Shown: positions 21,077-64,000 of the stretch, piece after piece
Layout: each line of letters opens with the position of its first letter
Position numbering within the stretch: the first letter of the stretch is position 1
Translations under genes and position numbers: made by a program
Assembly (NCBI GenBank): GCA_963811105.1
Contig: CAWEPZ010000009.1
Coordinates: 64,001-128,000, forward strand
Source: Candidatus Bathyarchaeota archaeon
Lineage (GTDB): Archaea; Thermoproteota; Bathyarchaeia; Bathyarchaeales; Bathycorpusculaceae
Length of the DNA: 64,000 bases
Reading direction: 5' to 3'
Notes under the pieces: generated by a model
Seen by the model: only the letters and a program-made list of their open reading frames with translations
Databases searched by the model: none
Told to the model about the DNA's origin: nothing

Positions 21077-22618
21077 ACCCTAACTGCAACGTAATTAGGT
21101 AACAGGGTCTCTAGAAAGCAGTTTATTTTGTTCAAAATGGCAAATGGGCTTAGAATCTACCGCTAATTTATTATATCACCTGTTCCCTAATAGGGAACTC
21201 ATGGATGCTGCATTAAAAGAAATTGTCGAAAAAGCAAAAACGCAATACGGCCAGATAGAACTCAAAAACATCAAAGGCCGCTTCTACCTCTACAAAGTAA
21301 CCAGCAAATACGACCCTCAAAAGAAAGAAACGCGAAAAATCTCAGGCCAATACATCGGCAGAGTAACTCCACAAGGCATCATCCAAGCCAAAACCCATGA
21401 AAGAACCATCCACGAGTACGCAAACGCCAAACTCCTAAAAACGCTCCTAGACGACGTTATAGAAAACCTCCGCATCCACTTCCCAGATGAATGGCGCGAA
21501 ATAGCAGCTTTCTCAATTGTTCGAACAATCAGAAACGTACCTATAAAATACGTCAAAGAAGCATGGGAAAAACTCTACCTCTCCCGGGAAATAGATACAT
21601 CACTCTCACGAAATACCTTATCCGAAAAACTCAGAAACATAGGCGCTGACTGGGACGCACAGCACTCCTTCTTTCTCTCACTAATGCAAGGTCAAAACGT
21701 ATTCTTCTACGATCTCTCATCCATTTTCAGCCGATCCGTCAACCTAAACCTCGCCGAAAAAGGCTACAACAAAGAACACCAGTTTCTTGACCAAATCAAT
21801 TTTGCCCTGCTCTTCTCACAAGAACGCAAAACGCCTGTTATGCTCAAATCCATGCCCGGCTCAATAAGAGACATTAAGTCTCTTCAAGCGTTTATGATCG
21901 AGTTTCCTCTGAAAGAATGCATACTTGTCCTAGATAGAGGCTTCCAATCTGCGGTAACAGAGGATGATCTGGTTTCCATGGGTGCTTCATTTATTCAGCC
22001 TCTTAGGCGTAACTCAAAACTAATTGATTATTCTCTTGAGCCTCAAACGCTTTTTGCGTACAGAGACAGAGGCATAAAGTGCGCTTCAAAGGAGCTTTTG
22101 ATAGGCGGGAAGAAGGCGACGCTTTTTCTGTACGAGGATGTTTTGCTGCGGGGCGAGGAACATTCGAATCTTATCAAGTTGAAGTTGGCGCATGGTAATC
22201 AAATTACGATTGATGAGCGGTGTTTGGGGAAGATTGCGATTTTGTCGAATCTTGATTGGGGTGGGGCGAAGGTCTATTTTATGTATAAAGAGAGGGAAGA
22301 TGTTGAAACGGCGTTTGATGCTATGAAGAATGAGTTGGAGAATGATAAGGCGTATTTGGGCAATGATGATGCGGTGAGGGGGTATTTTTTTGTTTCTTTT
22401 CTTTCGCTTTACTTGTATTTTCGGGTGCTCGAGAGGATAAGGGCGGCGGATATGATTGGTGAGATTTCTGTGGAAGAATTGTTGTTTAAGCTTTCAACGG
22501 TGTATTTGGTTAAGTATCGGAGTGGTAAAGAGAGGTTGAGTGAGGTTCCATCAAAGGTTCAAAAATTGATGACAAAACTAGGTTTGGACCTGTTACCTAA
22601 AAATTGAGCAGTTAGGGT
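21077..22618 (+). mobile_element. IS1634-like (IS4 superfamily) insertion sequence
   Basis: Imperfect TIRs ACCCTAACTGCAACGTAATTAGGTAACAGG and ACCCTAACTGCTCAATTTTTAGGTAACAGG (reverse complement); flanking direct repeat TTTCAAA at 21070-76 and 22619-25. Confidence 0.9.
21144..22607 (+). CDS. DDE transposase (IS1634-like)
   Basis: FYDLSS, GYNKE, PGSIRD, LDRGF, YKEREDVETAFDAMK. Confidence 0.92.
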   Translation: MGLESTANLLYHLFPNRELMDAALKEIVEKAKTQYGQIELKNIKGRFYLYKVTSKYDPQKKETRKISGQYIGRVTPQGIIQAKTHERTIHEYANAKLLKTLLDDVIENLRIHFPDEWREIAAFSIVRTIRNVPIKYVKEAWEKLYLSREIDTSLSRNTLSEKLRNIGADWDAQHSFFLSLMQGQNVFFYDLSSIFSRSVNLNLAEKGYNKEHQFLDQINFALLFSQERKTPVMLKSMPGSIRDIKSLQAFMIEFPLKECILVLDRGFQSAVTEDDLVSMGASFIQPLRRNSKLIDYSLEPQTLFAYRDRGIKCASKELLIGGKKATLFLYEDVLLRGEEHSNLIKLKLAHGNQITIDERCLGKIAILSNLDWGGAKVYFMYKEREDVETAFDAMKNELENDKAYLGNDDAVRGYFFVSFLSLYLYFRVLERIRAADMIGEISVEELLFKLSTVYLVKYRSGKERLSEVPSKVQKLMTKLGLDLLPKN

Positions 22619-53434: not shown

Positions 53435-53540
53435 ATTTAATGCCCTTGCTAATTTATGCTGCAGGTTAAAAGATAAGCCTATCTTTATTGTATACGAAAG
53501 CATCACCAAAACACACTTTTAACTGGCTCTAAAGTGGAAT

Positions 53541-53843
53541 TTAGGCGAAGAAATTTATTTCCAAGTGAGGTTTTATTTGTTTTTCATTTTAGAATTTTTC
53601 CATTTGTATTTTTTCGAAATTATCATGGTTGAAGTAACAAGTGCAATAGGCATGGTTCTTGCTTTATCTGAAACGAAACTCTACAGCTTGTCCAAATCCT
53701 TCGTCACCATACTTGCTATCACATGATATTCGCAGAAGACTATGTCTGTCGACATTACCTCGCCAAATTTAATGATTTTTTGAGCCACTTCTCTTTCTGT
53801 TCTATATGCAACTTTGAAAAGAACAGAAGCTTAAAACTTTCAT
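53541..53843 (-). pseudogene. Lrp/AsnC ligand-binding domain pseudogene
   Basis: ASVLFKVAYRTEREVAQKI..VFCEYHVIA..LDKL*SFVSDK..TSTMII, with a frameshift and a stop. Confidence 0.6.
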
Positions 53844-53988
53844 GACTTCACTATTTGCTAATCTCTTAAAACCTTAACATAATTTCCATACAGATAAGTT
53901 GCAAATCAAAAAAGTTTATCCAATAGCTTTACCTATTTATTTTAGGTTCATATGTTTCTTAGAGAAATAAATGATTGATTTTAAGTAG

Positions 53989-54726
53989 GTGTGTTGTTTG
54001 GAAAAGAAATATTTAATAACAAATTCAGATGCCCTGTTGATAACTGATATCCAAAGAGATTTCTTGCCCGGAGGCGCATTGCCCGTTGCTGACGGTGACG
54101 AAATAATACCTGTTCTTAACGAGTATGCGAGGCGTTTTGAAGACGCAAAAGCACATGTTTTTGCTTCTAGAGATTGGCATCCTCCCAATCATATGTCATT
54201 TAAAACGCAAGGAGGTCCTTGGCCGCCTCACTGTATACAAGATACTTTAGGTGCAAAGTTTAGTCCTGACCTTAAACTTCCTGAAGGCATTGTTGTAATT
54301 TCTAAGGCCACTAACCCTGAACATGAAAGCTACTCGGTTTTTGATGGAACCAGCTTCGCTCATGAACTGGAAATGTGCGAGGTAAAGCGACTTTTCATTG
54401 GAGGTTTAGCCACAGATTATTGTGTAGTAAACACGGTTCTTGATGCTCGTAAGCTTGGCTACGAAACAATAGTGCTTATGGACGCAACCTTAGGTATTAA
54501 CGTGGAGCCAGACGATGCTAAAAAGGCAGTTGAGGCGATGCAGAACGCTGGAGCTAAACAAATAACAATGGCTGATTTTCCAGACGAAATTGATGCCTTG
54601 CCAATGGATGAAGCTGAAGAAGACGTAATGGAGGAGAAGCCTTCCGAAAGGGCAGCAGTAAAGAAAAAAGCTCGAATGCGCCCTAAAGGTACTTCAAAGA
54701 GGGTTCGCACAGAGAGAAAAAGCTAA
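53989..54726 (+). CDS. pncA: Nicotinamidase/pyrazinamidase
   Basis: DIQRDFLPGGAL, DWHP..H, WPPHC, GLATDYCV. Confidence 0.92.
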   Translation: MCCLEKKYLITNSDALLITDIQRDFLPGGALPVADGDEIIPVLNEYARRFEDAKAHVFASRDWHPPNHMSFKTQGGPWPPHCIQDTLGAKFSPDLKLPEGIVVISKATNPEHESYSVFDGTSFAHELEMCEVKRLFIGGLATDYCVVNTVLDARKLGYETIVLMDATLGINVEPDDAKKAVEAMQNAGAKQITMADFPDEIDALPMDEAEEDVMEEKPSERAAVKKKARMRPKGTSKRVRTERKS

Positions 54727-55284
54727 TCTTCTTCGAAATACTGCGAAGCTTATATAATCATAGGCTTTCTCACCTAAAAACCGCGAGCAACAAGGGGACT
54801 ATTGCTCGCTGAACCTTAAAGGATTGCCATTGCAGACCACCCGCTTGCATTTTCATTTCAAAATGAACAAAAGTACCACCTAACTTCAACGTAAAGATTC
54901 TAAAAACGCTAAGAAACAGGTTCAATCCAAATCGCTCCAAGGCTATTACGTGTGGTTAACCGAACTAATTTGCCTTTATCTCTGTTTAATAAATCGTTAC
55001 GAATTTTGGTTTCTATCCTGTCCATAGATTTATGTTTGTGGCGAGATGATTTTGTGGCTCCCCCAATCTGAGTTTATGAGTTTTCTGTTTACTAAATTTT
55101 TTTTAGAGCGAAATTTATTCGAATGGGCACTTTTTACAATAAATAGTTAAAACACCGCGTTTTGGCGTAGGGAATTACTACTAAACAATTAAAAAACACG
55201 TTAATTGGGTTGTTTTCTACCATTCGAGAAACGAAAAATTGATAACTTTATGAAAAAGATGCTATCGTTCGATTCTTTGGTTTC

Positions 55285-55701
55285 TTATTGCTCGCCCATG
55301 ATTTGGATTATTACGGTTCTTTTTCTAGGGTAGACATCAGTTTCTACAAACATTAAAGATTGCCAGGTTCCAAACGTCACGTTACCGTCAACTATTGGCA
55401 AGGTTTTGTCTGGCGGAAGCAGTATGGATCGTAGATGAGAATGAGCGTTAGAAGGATGCTGGTACGCTTTATGTTTAGGCGCAAGCTCTTCAAGCAACGC
55501 CTTAATATCATCAATAAGGGCATCATCGTTTTCTGTTAAAATTATGATGCCTGTTGCGTGAGGAGCAAAAACGTGGACTAAACCATTTCGGATGCCCGAG
55601 CGCAAGACCTCTTCCTGGATTTTGTTAGATAGGTCTACGAAGTCAATTTCGCCTTTAGTGTTAAAGCTGTGACTTCTGTTTACAACCTTAAAGTTCGACA
55701 T
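55285..55701 (-). CDS. YjbQ family (secondary thiamine-phosphate synthase) protein
   Basis: PHATG..ENDD, NAHSHLRS, GTWQSL. Confidence 0.9.
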   Translation of the reverse strand: MSNFKVVNRSHSFNTKGEIDFVDLSNKIQEEVLRSGIRNGLVHVFAPHATGIIILTENDDALIDDIKALLEELAPKHKAYQHPSNAHSHLRSILLPPDKTLPIVDGNVTFGTWQSLMFVETDVYPRKRTVIIQIMGEQ

Positions 55702-55749
55702 TGCAAGCTTTTCTCCAACTGGTGTACAGGTAAAAATGGTTGAAAAACT

Positions 55750-56160
55750 TTTCTAAGGTCTTGAGCTTTCGAGTGCACCACCAGTCAAGTCGTCTACTAA
55801 TTTCATGTCTCTTGTGATTTGCTTCGGCAACCGAAGACTAAAAAACAGGCAAGGATATAAATAATTTTAAAGTAATATGTAGTTTCTAATAAACACTTTC
55901 CTGCTATTTTAATTATAAATGTATAATGTAAACATTGTGAAACGTTTTCGCTTCACAAAAAGATCTTATACTAATTATTTTTTCCAAGTCAAATGTCAAA
56001 AAATGGAATATTCATTTTTTAGACCAAAAAATGCATTTATTAACGCCAAAATAAGCATAGTTTAGATAATTTTGCCTTTCTTTAAGTTTTTTTCAACCCA
56101 GTTTAATCTAAAAAAAGCATTTACATGCCGTTTAATACTATATTTTTGAATTTTCCCTTT
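55750..56160 (-). ncRNA. Candidate structured RNA E (or long yjbQ leader)
   Basis: Minus-strand hairpins TTGTGAAGCG-AAAA-CGTTTCACAA, GGCAT-GTAA-ATGCT and CTTCGG-TTG-CCGAAG behind a TTAAATA box. Confidence 0.4.
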
Positions 56161-56369
56161 CCTGGCGTAATGTATATTTAATCTTCGACGATGTTCGAAG
56201 TTTTCAGTGCCTTCGGAGTAGAAGTTAAGTCAGGTAAAAGAGTTTTAGCCGTTTTCTATTGATGCTTTCGTGTACTAAACCAAAATAAATAATGAATCCT
56301 TAATTAACGATTTAGGAATTAGTAACACTCTATGAACCTGCTCTTGCATTAAAATTATTGGTATTATAG

Positions 56370-57076
56370 TTGGTGGGCTAGTTTCTGAGGTAGGTATATT
56401 TTTGTTACTGCTCAAAGCGGCCCAAATGAAATTAGCACATAAATTCATATGCCACACAAGATCAAAGCAAACAGTCTTCTACAGCTTACAAGTCACTTTT
56501 GCCTGTAAACCAAGGTGTTACACTAACAATTGGAGCCCGGAACGAGTGTTAACCTTAACACTTGCTACTCACAAGTAAAGGTACCTAATTTTGACAGAGG
56601 CACAGAAGCTGACCCGATAAACATCAGGATGACTCAATCGTTTCACCGCTGTAATTAATGTCTTGAATAAACGGATAGGCTAAGGCGCGTAATTGAAAAT
56701 GCAATTATGAATCAAACTTCAGCTCATGCTCAGTACTTTGTAAAGAAAAACAAAAAGGCAGTTAAAAGTGGAGTATGGAGACATAGCTTTAGCATAGCTG
56801 CAAATAGCGATTTGATGGCTGGTTACCTTTGGCGTTTTCGACTCTACGGTTCTTTCAAACAAATTGATAACTAATCCTGGAGCCCTTTCAAGCCTTCTTT
56901 TCGCATGGGTTAGAGGTTCTCTGTGACGTAAATGTAGGCCGATATTTGGGGGGGTGGAACAACCTCCCAGTAGGAAATCATCCTTACCCTCCATGAGTGC
57001 AAGAATGATTTTGATTTAGGCAAGGTAAAGCTTTGCCCGGTTTGACAACTCCGAACTCTCAAACTGCCAGCCTAAA
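56370..57076 (+). ncRNA. Candidate ~700-nt structured RNA C
   Basis: At least 8 stems, several with G-U pairs valid only on the + strand; no credible ORF. Confidence 0.55.
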
Positions 57077-57934
57077 ACACCGCAACATCAACACCTAACC
57101 CATTAATCCCTCCATCGCTGTTCGTTCCAGAATATCTAACAGTTGTTGCTTTCATAGCAATATTGGTAATCATAAGAGATATTAGCCCGTAAGAAAACCG
57201 TCAACTTAACCCAAGCTGAATGAGTTTGGGCGATGCTTTTGTATACAGAAATGATTTGCCGATTATCTATGAAGGCACCTTAAGCTTCAAATAATGGTGA
57301 ATAAACTGGGCATGCTTTTTTCTTTATTTAGAAATCATACACGCCTAAAATCTTATTTTGACAACTGCTTCTAAGGGTTTGAAAAATTTTGCGTCAAGGT
57401 TTTTCCTTAATTGTCCTATTGATGTGGCGCGTTCTTCTTGTCGGTTGCAGCTGTGATGGTCAATAATTAGTATTACTCATAGCACTAAGGTCACACAACA
57501 CATTTTTTAGATCAAGCAATGCCCTTAAGTTTAGCAAAGTTTAGGTTGGATTGAGACTTGCAATAGTGTGCTTGGATAAAAATAAAGGCAAAAAAGTTTC
57601 CCAAAGAACAACGAATTGTTCGCTTTGTTGCATTAATAAGGGCTCAGTTAATCAAAAAGAAATTGTCATTAAACTGTATTTACCTGCCGCTTCACCAGCA
57701 TTAATAAACTCTCAAGCTTTTGAGTTCTCCTTACTATAGTATTTGATTATTTCATTTTTCCTGCGCTCTGATATTGGAATAGAGTGTTTTATGAATGGTG
57801 AGATATGTTTTAAGAAATTAGAGTGACTAACTTTCGAGATATTTGGAGATTTTATAAAATTTCAAAGGTAGCCCGTCCTTGTCGTCAGGAATGCTTATTT
57901 TCTTTTTAAAAAAGGATTTTGCACTTTGGCTAAT

Positions 57935-58285
57935 ATAATTTTGACTAGTTACCTATCCGAGTTTATAGTCATCTGAGTTTTTTGCCGAGTAACAAAGTTC
58001 GTTGTTTTTTGTTCTATCAACACTCATGCAGTTCTGTTAAAGAAAGGAGTGTTAGCACGCAATTCCGACTCTTCAGGCAATTCCAAACAAGGAGAAAAGT
58101 GTGCGGCAAATTTCTTCTTCTTTACAAGCTTTTGGAAAAAGGAGGACACGGTGCTGCCGCCGATTGTTCATCATCTTTCAGAGAAGAACAACACCCAACG
58201 CTACCACAAATCGTTGTTCGTCTAATCTTCAAGATTTTTTGTGTTATTTCCTTGCTTAAGATTAACGGTCCATCGTTAACCCCAT
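57935..58285 (-). ncRNA. Candidate structured RNA A with K-loop
   Basis: GGGGTTAACG/CGTTAATCTT, GAACAACG/TGTTGTTC and TAACACTC/GAGTGTTG stems; TCTGA-AAG-ATGATGA motif. Confidence 0.5.
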
Positions 58286-58459
58286 TTTAATAAAAAAGTA
58301 TTAAATAAAGCTTATTTTGCCATAAACATAGTAGTAAAAGCTTGTTTTTTAGCGAAATATGAAAACCAAAAAAGAACGTCATTATTTTCTATGGAAACGA
58401 TAATTTAAAACCTCAGATTAAGGCTAAAATCATTAAATATCCTCATTTTAGCCTTTTAG

Positions 58460-58912
58460 CTAGGTGGCTTAGGAGAGTCGCATGGGGAATATCGGGGCCT
58501 CATATAAGTACCCTCGAAAATCTCCATGCGAAGCGGAAACCAGTTTTTTCGGCTTTACTTCGAACTTTTTGGGAAGTTTTTGTTGGATTTGAGAAACTCC
58601 GCCGATTTCTACGAAAAAATCTTACTAACAAAATTTCGGTGCGGTTAAGGAACTAGCAATGATTTTGGTGTCCGGTAGCTTTGGCCGTTCATCATGGCTT
58701 TGGAACGACGTCATTTGCATCAAAATTATTATGCAAGAAGTAAGGCTCTCAGTCAGGGCTATTCGGGAGGTTGGTAATCTTCTTTTGAATTCCACTGGGC
58801 TAATTGGCAGGTAATGAATCTAACGCCAAAAACGCGTGCGTCATTATGAGACGTTAGTTTTGTGATTTGTATCCAAGCCGGCTTTGCGTAAAGCAGTGGT
58901 TGCCGGATAGGG
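58460..58912 (+). ncRNA. Candidate ~450-nt structured RNA B
   Basis: 11-bp and 13-bp stems with nested hairpins and + strand G-U pairs; TTAAATA box at 58433. Confidence 0.6.
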
Positions 58913-59266
58913 GTGTGTTTGGTTGATGCTTCTGTATACCATTCGATTATTTTTGTATTTTCACCGAGCTAACTTTGGATAAATCTTAGCCCTTAGTGGT
59001 TTTGTTTCGGGTTCTTTTTTGGTTCAGCGTTAGCTTTGTAGGTGTTTAAGGTAGTCTAAACTGTCAATAATTTGGGTGCTTGAATGTTGGCTTTTATCTT
59101 ATCGGTTGCTTCAGTTGCTGAAGTATTACTTATTTTTTGTCCATCACCAGTTACCTCCAGTGCACACCAAGTTAATTCAGCGTATATAAAAGCATAACCT
59201 AAACCCACTTTTTCGGATCATCATAGCAATATTTTTTATTCCTAAAACCCGTTATATAGCGAATAC

Positions 59267-59716
59267 TTGAGGGGTAAACTGTTGAGCAAAGAGATTGACC
59301 GAATCAGACTTCGTCGTTGGCGTAAACGAGGATTCTACAGCGAAACCGTGTTGGTCAAGCTCCTGCAGAAAAAAGGTTACTACGCGGTACGGGTCCCCGT
59401 TAGCAACCCCAGCCTCAATCCACTGCCAGATATAATGGCGCGAAAAGGGCTCCACAATTATGCTTTTGAAGTAAAAAATGCTAGCTACTACGCTTATTTT
59501 CCCAAAGAACAAATCGACAAACTCTTCCGGTTTCTAGACCAGTTTATTCCCTCCGATCATGCTCACAAACATGCCGTGGTTGCAGCGCACCTGGGCAAGC
59601 GGTGGCTTTTCAAAGAAATCAGCTGGACGGATTGGGAGAAAAATAAGCTTCCAGGCAAAGTAAGAATCCTTAAGCGGGACAGGGGAAACCTAAACATGGA
59701 CACAACATACAGTTGA
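59267..59716 (+). CDS. Hjc-family Holliday junction resolvase-like nuclease
   Basis: RGFYSE..GYYAVRVP.S..PDIMA..AFEVK. Confidence 0.8.
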   Translation: MRGKLLSKEIDRIRLRRWRKRGFYSETVLVKLLQKKGYYAVRVPVSNPSLNPLPDIMARKGLHNYAFEVKNASYYAYFPKEQIDKLFRFLDQFIPSDHAHKHAVVAAHLGKRWLFKEISWTDWEKNKLPGKVRILKRDRGNLNMDTTYS

Positions 59717-59771
59717 CCTTGTAAAGCAATTTACCTCAAGTTATATAATTGCTAAGATAATACTTCATTAA

Positions 59772-60479
59772 ATGTGCAAGGGCGCTGAAATGTCAGAAGA
59801 AGACGCGATGGTTTGTACGCAAGTTTTAGGTCGAACTTATCAATTAGGGAATGCTAAAGTTGAAGTGCTAAAAGACATAACTTTGTCAATTCCAACTGGA
59901 ACATTTGTCGCGTTATGCGGTCCCTCAGGCTCGGGTAAAACCACTCTTCTCAATCTAATAAGTGGAATCGATAGGCCCACGAGCGGCAAAATTTTTGTGT
60001 CAGGTCAAGATTTGACTATTCAGGATGAAGATTTCTTGTCCGATTTTCGATGCAATAATGTGGGTTTTGTTTTTCAAGCGTACAATTTAGTTTCAACTTT
60101 AACGGTCGCTGAGAATGTTGCGTTTCCAATGGAATGGGCGCGGAAGCCTGAGGATGAAATAGAAAAAAGAGTAAATGAACTTCTTGAAATGGTGGGCTTA
60201 AAGCAGCGAATGAATCATTTTCCAGCTCAACTAAGCGGTGGTGAACAGCAGCGGGTTGCCTTTGCTAGAGCACTAGCTAATGATCCTCCCCTAGTTCTTG
60301 CAGATGAACCAACAGGTAATTTAGATGCGAAAAATGCTCAAAAAATCATTCAAGTCCTTCAGCTGTTGAAGCAAAATGGCAAAACAATCATTGTTTCCAC
60401 TCATGATACTGAAATTAGACAGTTGGCTGACCAAGTTGTATGCCTAGAGGATGGCAAATTGGCGAGCGTGGATGATTAA
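59772..60479 (+). CDS. LolD/MacB-type ABC ATPase
   Basis: [25 protein letters not shown]. Confidence 0.93.
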
Positions 60480-62349
60480 AACCAATTTTCCCATAAACGA
60501 CTTGCTCCGCAGGAAGCTTCAAACGAGTATAACCATTACCACTTTAACGTTAAGTGTAGCTTCCACATTGTTTCTTTTGCTATTTACTAATCGCTTAGGT
60601 TTTGGAGCAACCGTAACAGTTGGTAGTTTAACTCAAGGATTAACAGCTATCTTTTCCCAATTTACGCTATTTATTGGCGTATTGATTTTTGTGATCGGAG
60701 CAGTGTTAGCTTCTTTTGTTGCTTTCTTAATGATGACTCAAAGAACTCGAGATTTTGGTTTAATCAAGGCAGCTGGATGCCCAAACAGTTTGGTTGGGGG
60801 ATACTTAATGGCTGAGCTGCTGACAACTACATTGATCGGCTGCATTTTGGGCGTTGGTCTTGGTTTTTTAATGGATTACAGCATTTCCTACACGGTTTTT
60901 TCTGGGTATCAGTTCCCTAATTTTTGGTTTTTACCTCTGGTTTTTGTGGCCTTTTTTGTTTTATCATTTTCTTTTGGTCTTCAACCAATTCTTAAAGCAG
61001 CTAGAATGTCTCCTATGCAGGCGCTTTCACCGGTTAACTATTATGGGTTAACTGCAACCACAGGCAAGCATAGGCCCTTGTCACATTCTGCGTTAACTTG
61101 GCGTATTGCCACAAGGAGCCTGTTTCGTAGGCAGTCGGCAAGTATCCGAATTATTGTTTTGTTGTCTACAGTGTTTCTTTTGCTTACGGTTTCTGTTGCA
61201 GGAGGCATAATTGCGCGTGATACTACCGTTTCCTGGGTTCAAAAAACAGTTGATAAAGACACAATTGCAATAGCGCATAACGCGATGGGCAACCAATATA
61301 GACAGCTTTTGTTTGAATTTTCTGGTGTCAGGAATACGGGTAATTTCGACTATTCAGACTCGCAGCTGGCTATTCCAGACAATATTATTGAACAACTAAA
61401 TTCTTTACATAGTGTGAGTTTGGTTGATGCACGATTAATTTTGAAGAAGCATATTAAAGAAGTTTCAAACTTTACCATTTTTCCTGATACTGAGCAAACC
61501 GTTAATGTCGGAGATGATAGACAAGGAGACAGCATAGTTGTAGGTGTTAATCCACAAAAACTGTCAGGGTCATGGTATACTCAAGGGCAATTTCTGACTG
61601 CTAAAGATAGTCTTGAAGCTGTTGTAGGTGATTCCATAGCTCATCAAATGTACTCATCTAACCCTGGCAAAGGAATTGTTTTATCTGATCCTCTGGTTGA
61701 AGGCTTAGAACTGCAAAATAGTACTTTTGACATCATTGGGGTAGCTGTTGACCCGCTAAATAATGGTTTGGTAATTTATGTGCCCATTGAAGTATTGATG
61801 AACATTACTGGTAACTCTAGCCCCAACTTGCTGTTAGTTAAGCTAAGCAATTCAACCGACCGCTCCGAAGTTCTCGCCCAAATCAAATCATTAATACAAC
61901 CTGTAGATCCTGATTTGAACGTGTTTATTTTGAATGATGTTGTTGCAAAAAATACGGATTTCTTAGCTTCATCCTGGCAAACGATCATGCTTCTACCGAT
62001 TTTTACTTTAGTTTCTGCAATGCTGTGCTTGGTGGGTTACTTGATGCTTGCTGTAGATGAACAGCACCAAGAATTCGCTGTTTTACGGGCTGTGGGAGCT
62101 AAACCAAAAGTAATAGTCACTATTTTGGCGATTCAAAGCGTATTTGTGCTTATTTCCAGTTTTGCAGCTGGAATACCTCTCGGCACAGTAATAACCTATA
62201 TTATTCTGATGCATCAACCGCTCGTCACAATCTTTACCGTTTTTCAAATAAGCGGGTGGCTTCTTGCAGCTTTGATTGGAATGTTTCTGTTTAGCCTTTA
62301 CCCTGCGTTGAAGCTAGCCAAAACTTCCATCTTAAAAATTATGACTTAA
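60472..62349 (+). CDS. FtsX-like ABC permease (two FtsX modules)
   Basis: QRTRDFGLIKAAG and EFAVLRAVGA motifs, multiple TM helices. Confidence 0.88.
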   Translation: MIKTNFPINDLLRRKLQTSITITTLTLSVASTLFLLLFTNRLGFGATVTVGSLTQGLTAIFSQFTLFIGVLIFVIGAVLASFVAFLMMTQRTRDFGLIKAAGCPNSLVGGYLMAELLTTTLIGCILGVGLGFLMDYSISYTVFSGYQFPNFWFLPLVFVAFFVLSFSFGLQPILKAARMSPMQALSPVNYYGLTATTGKHRPLSHSALTWRIATRSLFRRQSASIRIIVLLSTVFLLLTVSVAGGIIARDTTVSWVQKTVDKDTIAIAHNAMGNQYRQLLFEFSGVRNTGNFDYSDSQLAIPDNIIEQLNSLHSVSLVDARLILKKHIKEVSNFTIFPDTEQTVNVGDDRQGDSIVVGVNPQKLSGSWYTQGQFLTAKDSLEAVVGDSIAHQMYSSNPGKGIVLSDPLVEGLELQNSTFDIIGVAVDPLNNGLVIYVPIEVLMNITGNSSPNLLLVKLSNSTDRSEVLAQIKSLIQPVDPDLNVFILNDVVAKNTDFLASSWQTIMLLPIFTLVSAMLCLVGYLMLAVDEQHQEFAVLRAVGAKPKVIVTILAIQSVFVLISSFAAGIPLGTVITYIILMHQPLVTIFTVFQISGWLLAALIGMFLFSLYPALKLAKTSILKIMT

Positions 62350-63039
62350 ACTACTGAAAGATTTAGTAAAATACTTTAGCGATTCAATGTGCAGTGGCAT
62401 TTGGTTTATGAAATCTTGCAGCTGCAATATAGGTACGATGGGAACGTTATCATAAAACTTGAATGAACTTGGAAGAAGCGATAATACAACTGGGATGAAT
62501 TTGGCGCTACTCCATTTTGTGCATTCAAGTGTTAATTTGATATTGGGTAAAATATCTACCAGAGCGTTTGTTCGCTCTACCTGTGAATCAACAATTCTTC
62601 TCAATGCTGAAGGTGCTATTGAGTGCTGCCAATGTTTACAATCCACACAAATAACTGTGGGTTTTTTGCAGCCGATGACGTCTATTTCGTACTTGCGTGT
62701 GGCATTTTTAAACCGAACGTTGTTTGTTACCGTGTATCCGAAGGTTTTTAGTGCAAAACCAGCTATTTCCTCAAACTCTTGCCAACAAAGCAAATGGCTC
62801 GTCTGCTCTGAATCAGCTCCTAAAGAAACCGCTTTAACAGCTAATTTCAACCGTGCGTTGCTTTCAGCTGTTACCTTGCCTGATTCCAAATTAACTAATC
62901 CTTCATTTTGCAGTTTATCAAGCAACTTCGTTGATGTAGCTGATAATATGCGCGCATCCTTGTTGACATTTTCAGTTAAAACAGCTCCTTTTTTGGTTAA
63001 TTTGAGAAGCGAAATTATCAGATTACGTTCAACACTCAC
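62332..63039 (-). CDS. wHTH plus Mrr-like PD-(D/E)XK restriction-endonuclease-fold protein
   Basis: WQEFEE..FGY..EIDVIG..VDCKHW. Confidence 0.8.
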   Translation of the reverse strand: MSVERNLIISLLKLTKKGAVLTENVNKDARILSATSTKLLDKLQNEGLVNLESGKVTAESNARLKLAVKAVSLGADSEQTSHLLCWQEFEEIAGFALKTFGYTVTNNVRFKNATRKYEIDVIGCKKPTVICVDCKHWQHSIAPSALRRIVDSQVERTNALVDILPNIKLTLECTKWSSAKFIPVVLSLLPSSFKFYDNVPIVPILQLQDFINQMPLHIESLKYFTKSFSSLSHNF

Positions 63040-63199
63040 TTCAAAACCTCAACCAAATTAATACTTAAGGAGCAAAAAAACTGCTAAAATAATAGAACAT
63101 AACCCTGCATATCGCTGAATCGTATACAAAAGCATCAACCAAACATACTTTAAAATAGTTTAAGACATATTATCCTCGAATAATTTCTACGATTCTTTT

Positions 63200-63655
63200 C
63201 AATAAGCCCCTCTTCGTCCTATTGCTAAAGTTTATGGTTATCTTAGAGAAATACCCTTCTGCTTTCCGCACCATACAAAACCAGCCGTTCTTCGCATCTC
63301 GTAGCTCCTTGGAGACAAGAGATTCAGGGTAATTTGACATATAAACTACATTTATAGACAGGGATATGAAGCTTTTTTAGCTTTTAAATGTAAAATAACT
63401 ACGTTCGATTGTTTTTCGCTAATCAAAATTTTAAGAAATGTGTCTAATTGTGAGGAAAATGTGAGCCCAGGCTAAAAAATTTGAGATGTAAGCTAGGAAA
63501 AATATGAAAATAGCTAATCACTATATGCACGCTTTTGCTTAACCTTAAAGAGGGTGATTACAGGCGCTATTTAGGTTAGTTTACAAGATTTTTTGTGACT
63601 TCATATCTGCCGGAAAAATGCTAAGCATTATGCAGGTTAGTTAAGTTCTCTTTTT
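63200..63655 (-). ncRNA. Candidate ~450-nt structured RNA D
   Basis: AAATAGC/GCTATTT with TAATCAC/GTGATTA nested stems, and a long rod AGTTTAT/ATAAACT with AAATTACCCT/AGGGTATTT. Strand assigned mainly from the TTAAATA box. Confidence 0.5.
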
Positions 63656-64000
63656 GGTTTTAGTTTAATGTATATTTAACCTTCGAGGGGCTTCGAGGGA
63701 ATCCACGGTTCAGGGGCAGCTTGAATCGTAATTCTGAATGTGTTCTGTTGATGCTTTCGTATACCAAGCAGTCCTATCGCAATAAGGCTAAGAAAGTATT
63801 TTGTTTGAATAAAAAACTGAAAATTAAGTTTAAGAAAATAGTTATTTCTTTTCGCTTTCTTGGATTTCGCATTGAAGCTTCTTTATTATTTCATCAGCTC
63901 GCAATGGCTCAATTTTGAGCGTGTAGAGTCTACTGGGTGTACGAAGTTTCAATTTAACAATATCTTTAGATCTTTTGACTGAGCAATGCTTTGCTTTTGC

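Follow-up and report, generated by a model that had tools for sequence, protein, structure and literature searches.

Between a UPF0047 gene and hjc, which encodes a Hjc Holliday-junction resolvase, lies a 3.5-kb stretch of archaeal DNA (55702–59266) carrying no open reading frame of at least 100 aa with a family match. The window analysed here is 64,000 nucleotides long and corresponds to positions 64001–128000 of contig C9 of G000, a 3.49-Mb archaeal genome in 15 contigs. The original prediction placed a multibranched RNA of about 450 nt on the + strand at 58460–58912. The question is whether this DNA carries an RNA gene of that or a smaller size, or a site that acts as DNA. We know of no ncRNA described by experiment in the large archaeal family concerned, whose uncultured members live in soil, peat and sediment. 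A search of titles and abstracts turned up nothing on replication origins or termini in Bathyarchaeia.

Secondary structure of the 453-nt interval

The helix strings on which the prediction was built are all present at their positions (direct check). TCGCATGGGGA (58478–58488) pairs with TCTCCATGCGA (58521–58531) with one G-U, TCGGGG (58492–58497) pairs with CCTCGA (58512–58517), and AATGATTTTGGTG (58658–58670) pairs with CATCAAAATTATT (58718–58730) with two G-U; the CTAACG/CGTTAG, TATCC/GGATA and GCTTT/AAAGC strings are found as well. TTAAATA is situated upstream (58434–58440), and the copy of a 29-nt motif termed motif copy 4 adjoins the end of the interval, starting at about 58911.

The predicted fold of the 453 nt on the + strand gives −129.6 kcal/mol vs −122.9 ± 4.9 kcal/mol for dinucleotide shuffles (z = −1.39, 6 of 100 shuffles equal it); the − strand gives z = −1.14, equalled by 14 of 100. 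When the four helices are compared separately with shuffles, the first hairpin is exceptional (58476–58533, −26.1 kcal/mol, z = −5.28, reached by 0 of 200 shuffles), whereas the other three are at chance level. These are the AATGATTTTGGTG/CATCAAAATTATT helix (z = −0.95, 33 of 200 shuffles as good), the "G-U-rich rod" (z = −0.85, 47 of 200) and the TATCC/GGATA hairpin (z = −1.03, 30 of 200). Helices 2–4 (58616–58912) are in a fast-evolving spacer, since 58617–58908 could not be aligned to seven same-genus loci, although the spacing across this segment is similar among same-genus loci. Thus a multibranched RNA of about 450 nt is not supported: of its four structural elements, three do not exceed chance, and these are in DNA that is unconserved even within the genus. 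Because the reverse complement of hairpin 1 folds about equally well (z = −5.22), this hairpin is an inverted repeat at the DNA level as much as an RNA hairpin.

A conserved single-copy core

What survives of the prediction is its 5′ part. A functional non-coding element had been placed just after TTAAATA; the first 100–150 nt or so are among the most conserved stretches of the locus, family-wide, but the remainder is variable spacer. A BLAST search with the 3.5-kb gap matched 22 of 24 same-genus genomes, sharing a core at 58478–58563 with 77–93% identity, and gave no match in 16 genomes from other families. The query 58224–58640 matched 68 of 80 other genomes of the genus, and 46 of 47 when good-quality genus genomes including G000 are counted. 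Almost every genus genome shows one match, and G000 carries one full copy.

The 68 genus sequences were aligned (A1) and converted to a covariance model for a search of the family. Matches were found in 116 of 150 other family genomes and 53 of 70 genera (69 of 79 good-quality genomes). In a draw of genomes from the order, the element was present in 41 of 45 family members and in 1 of 105 genomes from ten other families. The lone match outside the family is 168 nt long and is taken for contamination: its contig is short, and the assembly, in 240 contigs, is 4% contaminated. The DNA runs with words in common with the locus come from metagenomes of soil, peat and sediment.

The conserved body at the family level runs from ATGGA to the second CTTCGA(G/A) (58481–58563), and about 110 nt upstream of ATGG are likewise conserved at this level (Table 1). 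In A1 the invariant or near-invariant segments are ATGG (58482–58485), GCCTCATATAAGTAC (58497–58511), CGAAAATCTCCATGCGAAGC (58515–58534), TTTTTCG (58545–58551) and CTTCGA (58558–58563). The block GCCTCATATAA..AC....CGAAAATCTCCATGCGAAG is retained in 76 family-level sequences, and the block AAACTTTGC (58590–58615) is not conserved at the family level. The conserved non-coding, single-copy interval is 58364–58615. The core, about 100 nt or up to about 250 nt with the upstream blocks, is a real, deeply conserved, single-copy, non-coding and undescribed element.

Table 1. Features of the locus and positions of the 29-nt motif in G000 (window coordinates unless a contig is named)
Feature	Position	Strand	Basis or remark
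UPF0047 gene	55285–55701	−	
29-nt motif copy, upstream	57217–57246	+	brackets the core together with the copy at 59182 (−)
Conserved A/T-rich blocks, upstream	58364–58470	+	ungapped profile, 131 distinct sequences anchored on ATGG; conserved A-runs and GCC/GGC blocks
Inverted repeat GGCTAAAAT / ATTTTAGCC around TTAAATAT	58422–58430 / 58445–58453; 58434–58441	+	11-bp arms, 1 mismatch
Hairpin 1 / inverted repeat, outer arms enclosing invariant loop	58478–58531	+	fold z
Near-invariant block GCCTCATATAA..AC....CGAAAATCTCCATGCGAAG	58497–58534	+	columns invariant or at least 90% (68 genus sequences)
Two TTCG(A/G) boxes, 11–12 bp apart	58548–58551, 58559–58562 (in 58545–58572)	+	invariant TTCG, CTTCG columns
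T-tract after second TTCG box	58566–58570	+	count of T4+ vs shuffled tails
Genus-level block, consensus AAACTTTGC	58590–58615 (near 58595)	+	genus conservation ends here
Non-conserved spacer holding helices 2–4	58616–58910	+	no BLAST alignment, 7 same-genus loci
29-nt motif copy GGGTGTGTTTGGTTGATGCTTCTGTATAC (motif copy 4)	58911–58939	+	
Element 2, block-wise conserved non-coding module between inverted motif copies	58940–59181		
29-nt motif copy, degenerate	59182–59210	−	about 70 nt upstream of hjc start (59267)
hjc, Hjc Holliday-junction resolvase gene	59267–59716	+	
29-nt motif copies, window	53490 (−), 56261 (+, weak), 57232 (+), 58925 (+), 59182 (−), 63122 (−), 63750 (+)	as given	
29-nt motif copies, elsewhere in G000	C11:1164370 (−), C11:1405227 (+)	as given	

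RNA structure of the core

Relatives of the 5′ part were found, but without compensatory changes: the RNAalifold consensus fold of A1 gives −2.36 kcal/mol and 0 compensatory pairs. In the inner stem TCGGGG/CCTCGA the two sides change independently among the 68 genus sequences, with no covariation (by eye and per-pair counts). A second alignment (A2) consists of 75 distinct family-level sequences aligned to the covariance model. Pairs are formed in 84.1% of its cells vs 83.8% expected from shuffles, and the covariation score is 0.083 vs 0.077 shuffled, with 56 of 500 shuffles reaching 0.083. Of hairpin 1, only AUGGA/UCCAU is retained family-wide; the next two pairs (36-72 and 37-71) are unpaired in 32–36 of the 75 sequences. 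Extension of a CGAAG/CUUCG helix past the invariant letters, with mismatched partners as control, gave 0.51 extra pairs vs 0.48 ± 0.06 (119 sequences, p = 0.32). The segment after CUUCGA showed no consistent structure (mean z = −0.43, 65 sequences). No helix of the core is supported by covariation.

Over 76 family sequences the mean z of hairpin 1 is −2.0 on the + strand and −2.7 on the − strand; the mean energies are −12.0 vs −17.1 kcal/mol in favour of the − strand (Wilcoxon p = 1e-11, the sequences being related). Within the genus, however, the G-U pairs of hairpin 1 favour the + strand. This contradictory wobble evidence is as expected for a DNA inverted repeat, or for an RNA whose helix is not selected.

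Upstream of the core, three or four GGCT/AGCC units at 58404–58453 can form alternative hairpins. By eye, these stems differ among relatives, e.g. GCTCA/TGAGC and GCTAGA/TCTAGC. Two such upstream hairpins, H1 and H2, seemed to covary by eye and were rejected, as RNAalifold gave 0 pairs and the mean z was about −1 (control −0.4).

Coding potential and other identities

The open reading frame starting at ATG 58482 (36 aa) has TAA or TAG at codon 8 in five genus and several family sequences, and that starting at ATG 58526 (40 aa) is broken in relatives (ATA, then TAA). Reverse-strand frames reach a stop after 4–12 codons (alignments, by eye). Variable columns are found in contiguous blocks and are not 3-periodic. 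The core is non-coding.

Known RNAs do not account for the core. RNase P RNA and SRP RNA are both found elsewhere in G000, above their cut-offs. A tRNA-like CUCAUAA was considered and gave no tRNA signal at E ≤ 10. An Rfam search of the whole window at the families' gathering thresholds showed only two tRNAs, situated elsewhere in it, and the 4227 families searched against 55500–59400 at E ≤ 10 gave five sub-threshold chance matches, none in 58380–58912. As for a trans-pairing target, the core gave only chance matches of 12–18 nt in G000 (blastn-short). A phage att site was rejected as well, the core pattern having 0 exact matches in viral contigs. A search of G000 for amoA gave no match, which speaks against an ammonia oxidiser, but the control genomes gave none either.

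Gene-like signals

The ungapped profile displays an A-run at −49 to −44 from ATGG, then GCC, an 8-nt box of 90–99% A+T at −38 to −31 (TTAAATAT or CATTTTAG in the window), again GCC and then TTTT(C). A second such unit is found further upstream. The A/T blocks and the inverted repeat among them are a candidate for either a BRE/TATA region or a hairpin plus T-run. Their layout fits an archaeal BRE/TATA about 25–30 nt before a putative start near 58463–58473; the alternative, a hairpin plus T-run, would fit also.

At the other end, 88 of 118 sequences have T4+ no more than 18 nt beyond the second TTCG box, vs 26 of 118 shuffled tails, and the position of this T-tract coincides with the end of family-level conservation. 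Since an AT box is found upstream and a T-tract where conservation stops, the limits of conservation look like those of a transcription unit of about 100 nt on the + strand. The AT box and terminal oligo-T that mark archaeal sRNA genes are both present as consensus-level signals, which are not in themselves proof of a gene. Size, AT-box distance, 3′ T-tract, 5′ hairpin and lineage-restricted distribution are all alike between the core and archaeal sRNA genes. The core differs from them in its lack of covariation, its invariant stretch of about 40 nt, its fixed linkage to a second conserved module and the lack of an Rfam match.

Further to the left, an open reading frame of 58 aa (58049–58225, +) has AAGGAG just upstream and is followed by an inverted repeat plus T-run, AATCTTCAAGATTTTTT. 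This may be a gene for a small protein, and its putative terminator may form the left edge of the genus-level conserved region.

The neighbouring module and the 29-nt motif

At 22 same-genus loci the order begins with a UPF0047-like gene (−); about 75 nt from it stands a copy of the 29-nt motif (+), and after 0.9–1.5 kb without coding sequence comes the core (+). Another (+) copy often follows, then a (−) copy and, about 100 nt beyond this, hjc (+). Among 68 family rows with enough flank, 43 show a (+) then a (−) motif 245–275 bp apart (median 268), and 19 further rows show only the (−) copy or another spacing. The orientation of the core relative to the downstream module and gene is fixed in all loci examined. 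The flanking genes themselves vary by genus: LonB-like or UPF0047 upstream, hjc or a GNAT acetyltransferase downstream. Because the flanking protein genes change between genera, the core and module travel as a unit. An upstream open reading frame of 300 aa was considered as an initiator protein and rejected, as it reads as the N-terminal part of a LonB-type protease; that, at least, is what we take its motifs to be. It has no match in Pfam, and a tblastn search of G000 yielded nothing.

Element 2 shows 66% identity to three genus loci over 58909–59298. Its family consensus of about 240 bp (also e.g. L092:1567–1818) displays conserved blocks in 38 sequences, namely TGTAGGCTAA, GTATTAC, TCACCAG and CTCCAG, with no internal consensus fold on either strand. 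In some genomes a short hydrophobic open reading frame is found within it (59084–59197, 37 aa, in the window; 32 aa in L122).

Within the genus, conservation of the 29-nt motif (consensus about AAGTGTGTTTGGTTGATGCTTTTGTATAC) is about 96%, and the family as a whole retains it. Changes in one copy of a locus are not compensated in its partner, and the copies are therefore instances of a sequence motif and not arms of a selected helix. G000 carries nine copies, six or seven of them in the window at 53490–63764 and within 10 kb of the core, in the order −, +, core, +, −, −, +. Three copies precede a start codon by 57–92 nt and are oriented towards the gene. Of the copies more than 10 kb from the core in four complete genomes, 19 of 21 point from ori to ter (binomial p = 2e-4, the sites being partly orthologous), a polarity that may merely reflect gene orientation.

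The window also contains a DDE transposase gene (21144–22607, +), and C9 shows tyrosine-recombinase matches at 310255 and 339404, which suits a region rich in mobile elements.

Position on the chromosome

The best Cdc6/Orc1 gene of G000 (C11:1353159–1354400, −) adjoins an intergenic region of 800 bp (C11:1354401–1355204). This region contains two exact TTCTACTGGA(G/A)AA boxes, TTCTACTGGAGAA and TTCTACTGGAAAA, each after CACCCC, together with a stretch of 87% A+T and a GGAAACATAGGGGTG element. The boxes, which we take to resemble ORB elements, are found in exact form nowhere else in G000. The region beside the main cdc6/orc1 gene is probably oriC.

The distance from the core to cdc6 is 0.491, 0.484, 0.495 and 0.500 of the chromosome in four single-contig genomes (G003, G014, G067 and G068; 2,354,843 to 3,053,889 bp, circles assumed closed), which belong to one genus and are not independent. 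Two other genera give 0.41–0.48 (G104, 2 contigs) and 0.45–0.50 (G177, 4 contigs), ranges that depend on the placement of small contigs. The half-circle relation persists in genomes that differ in size by up to 0.7 Mb, as one would expect for an element on the ori-ter axis. Neither GC skew nor gene-strand bias gives a clear signal on C9 or C11. Each genome carries two Orc1/Cdc6 paralogues, and cdc6-2 is 0.5–0.8 Mb from the core. No cdc6 gene is present at the core locus itself, the cdc6 genes being on other contigs or at least 0.5 Mb away, and exact copies of the ORB-like box are confined to the cdc6-1 locus, with none at the core locus. An archaeal oriC is characterised by ORB or mini-ORB repeats, an AT-rich unwinding element and an adjacent orc1/cdc6 gene, a combination that the core locus does not show.

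Comparison with dif sites and fork traps

Archaeal dif consists of 11-bp imperfect inverted repeats with a 6-bp spacer, and is single-copy and opposite oriC with conserved flanks and flanking inverted repeats (PMC2958812). In Thermococcus kodakarensis, dif (TTTTGATATAATGTACCTTATATGACAA) is situated between convergent genes in 1.9 kb of intergenic DNA, and the DNA around it acts as an SMC boundary, "boundary 1" (PMC11840125).

The core is like dif in being single-copy, opposite oriC and in a large non-coding region, and its locus also shows conserved flanking sequence and flanking inverted repeats. With the left arm plus spacer of the 28-bp T. kodakarensis site the core shares ATATAA and GTACC. 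However, it lacks the 11-6-11 palindrome, TAA..TTA and an inverted right arm; the flanking genes diverge, no XerA passes the curated cut-off, and the conserved stretch is far longer (about 100–250 bp) and more invariant than in the T. kodakarensis site as described.

With the general 11-6-11 rule and the T. kodakarensis site as the only references, a scan of 58350–59270 (11-bp arms, spacer 4–10, up to 3 mismatches) found no such repeat in 58478–58527. Matches occurred at 58422–58453 (the best, spacer 10 with 1 mismatch) and, with 3 mismatches each, at 58528–58558, 58571–58602, 58966–58992 and 59221–59247; none carries TAA..TTA. The best score for XerA (NF040815) in G000, G003, G014, G067 and G068 is 104 bits, the cut-off being 220. 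Several other tyrosine recombinases are found in those five genomes, some of them within 20–40 kb of the core locus in G003, G014 and G067. A dif-like palindrome at C9:24817 was rejected, as it is not conserved in relatives and its matches are at control level. The core is not a member of the dif family, because it has no inverted right arm, no TAA..TTA and no XerA at the cut-off.

Bacterial replication fork traps include Tus-Ter of E. coli and RTP-Ter of B. subtilis. It is the 29-nt motif, not the core, that looks like these: a polar site of about 30 bp, clustered in both orientations around the antipode of oriC, with distant copies co-oriented with fork movement. In its arrangement the motif resembles a fork trap or guiding array. 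It differs in that the order near the core is not two clean opposed groups, and the polarity may simply follow that of the genes. We know of no terminator protein for the motif, and to our knowledge neither a fork trap nor a translocase-guiding array has been described in Archaea.

Discussion

Our preferred reading, held tentatively and with less than even confidence, is that approximately 58465–58572 (+) is the gene of a small non-coding RNA, about 100 nt in length and perhaps up to about 150 nt in the genus, specific to one family of uncultured archaea. The conserved A-run and AT-rich box would direct transcription from a start about 10 nt ahead of the conserved ATGG, and the transcript would end at the oligo-T after the second UUCG box. 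The RNA would fold into a 5′ hairpin with an invariant loop and 3′ arm, GCCUCAUAUAA..AC....CGAAAAUCUCCAUGCGAAG, and this invariance may come from being read as sequence, not as a helix, by a protein or RNA partner. The remaining 300 nt or so of the earlier interval is variable spacer outside any conserved fold. Conservation, single copy, lack of coding, boundaries, AT box and T-tract are observations, and transcription, strand, ends and partner are what we infer. A T6 run at 58543–58548, inside the conserved body in this genus, speaks against such a gene, and an ordinary sRNA leaves the position opposite oriC and the linked motif array unexplained.

These two features are what a DNA-level reading would account for. 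The core, the inverted 29-nt motifs and element 2 would together be a terminus element, a protein-binding platform opposite oriC and a functional analogue of dif and its surroundings in a lineage with no recognisable XerA; its proposed roles are chromosome-dimer resolution, fork fusion or trapping, or an SMC boundary. We consider this possible, and only somewhat less likely than the small RNA gene. The distances to the cdc6 gene, which in G000 adjoins the region read as oriC, argue for it, and so do conservation by primary sequence without covariation, TTCG boxes repeating at about one helical turn, the linkage to a module bounded by inverted motif copies, the gathering of most G000 copies near the core and the polarity of the distant ones. 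That hairpin 1 folds better on the reverse strand across the family is compatible with a DNA palindrome no less than with an RNA. CATATAA-GTACC in the core resembles the left arm and spacer of T. kodakarensis dif (GATATAATGTACC), a site which also is in a large intergenic region with functional flanks (PMC11840125). Against this, the core shows neither a dif-type repeat with a 4–10-bp spacer nor TAA(N)6-8TTA, its two sides are not inverted copies of each other, no XerA reaches the NCBIfam cut-off in the five genomes searched, and the flanking genes mostly diverge where those of T. kodakarensis dif converge. Furthermore, the most exact distances are from a single genus, the strand statistics of C9 are uninformative, the direction of the motifs is confounded with that of the genes, and a gene model accommodates the AT box and T-tract. 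An extended form, in which the core and polar motifs would be the terminus organiser of a XerA-less family, combining a new non-Xer resolution or termination machinery with a fork-trap or translocase-guiding array, is improbable; here the polar motifs would converge on the neighbouring 268-bp module. The same repeated, inverted motifs in a large non-coding region could instead be initiator-binding sites of a second, non-ORB replication origin opposite oriC1. Diverging flanking genes, two Orc1/Cdc6 paralogues per genome and a segment at 55850–56150 that is very AT-rich by eye are consistent with such an origin, but it is very unlikely given that the locus has no ORB-like box of the cdc6-1 type and no adjacent orc1/cdc6, that the motif copies are spread over 10 kb and not clustered in less than 1 kb, and that element 2 between the inverted motifs is not AT-rich. 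The core has the strand of the downstream gene in all loci, which would suit a promoter, operator or leader acting on that gene (hjc here); we hold this to be highly unlikely, as the gene is hjc in some genera and a GNAT acetyltransferase in others, about 480–620 nt away, with the motif-bounded module and partly unconserved sequence in between. Whatever likelihood the small RNA, the terminus, the second origin and the promoter or leader leave belongs to something else.

The invariance of about 40 nt across about 50 genera is a tighter constraint than that on the neighbouring protein genes, the LonB N-termini being 62–78% identical, and therefore something essential reads the core. If the core acts as RNA, it would be a new lineage-specific component of an RNP. 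If it is a DNA site, it would offer a way into the question of how chromosomes are completed and resolved in archaea that lack XerA, and its sequence would also serve directly to mark the terminus in metagenome-assembled genomes.
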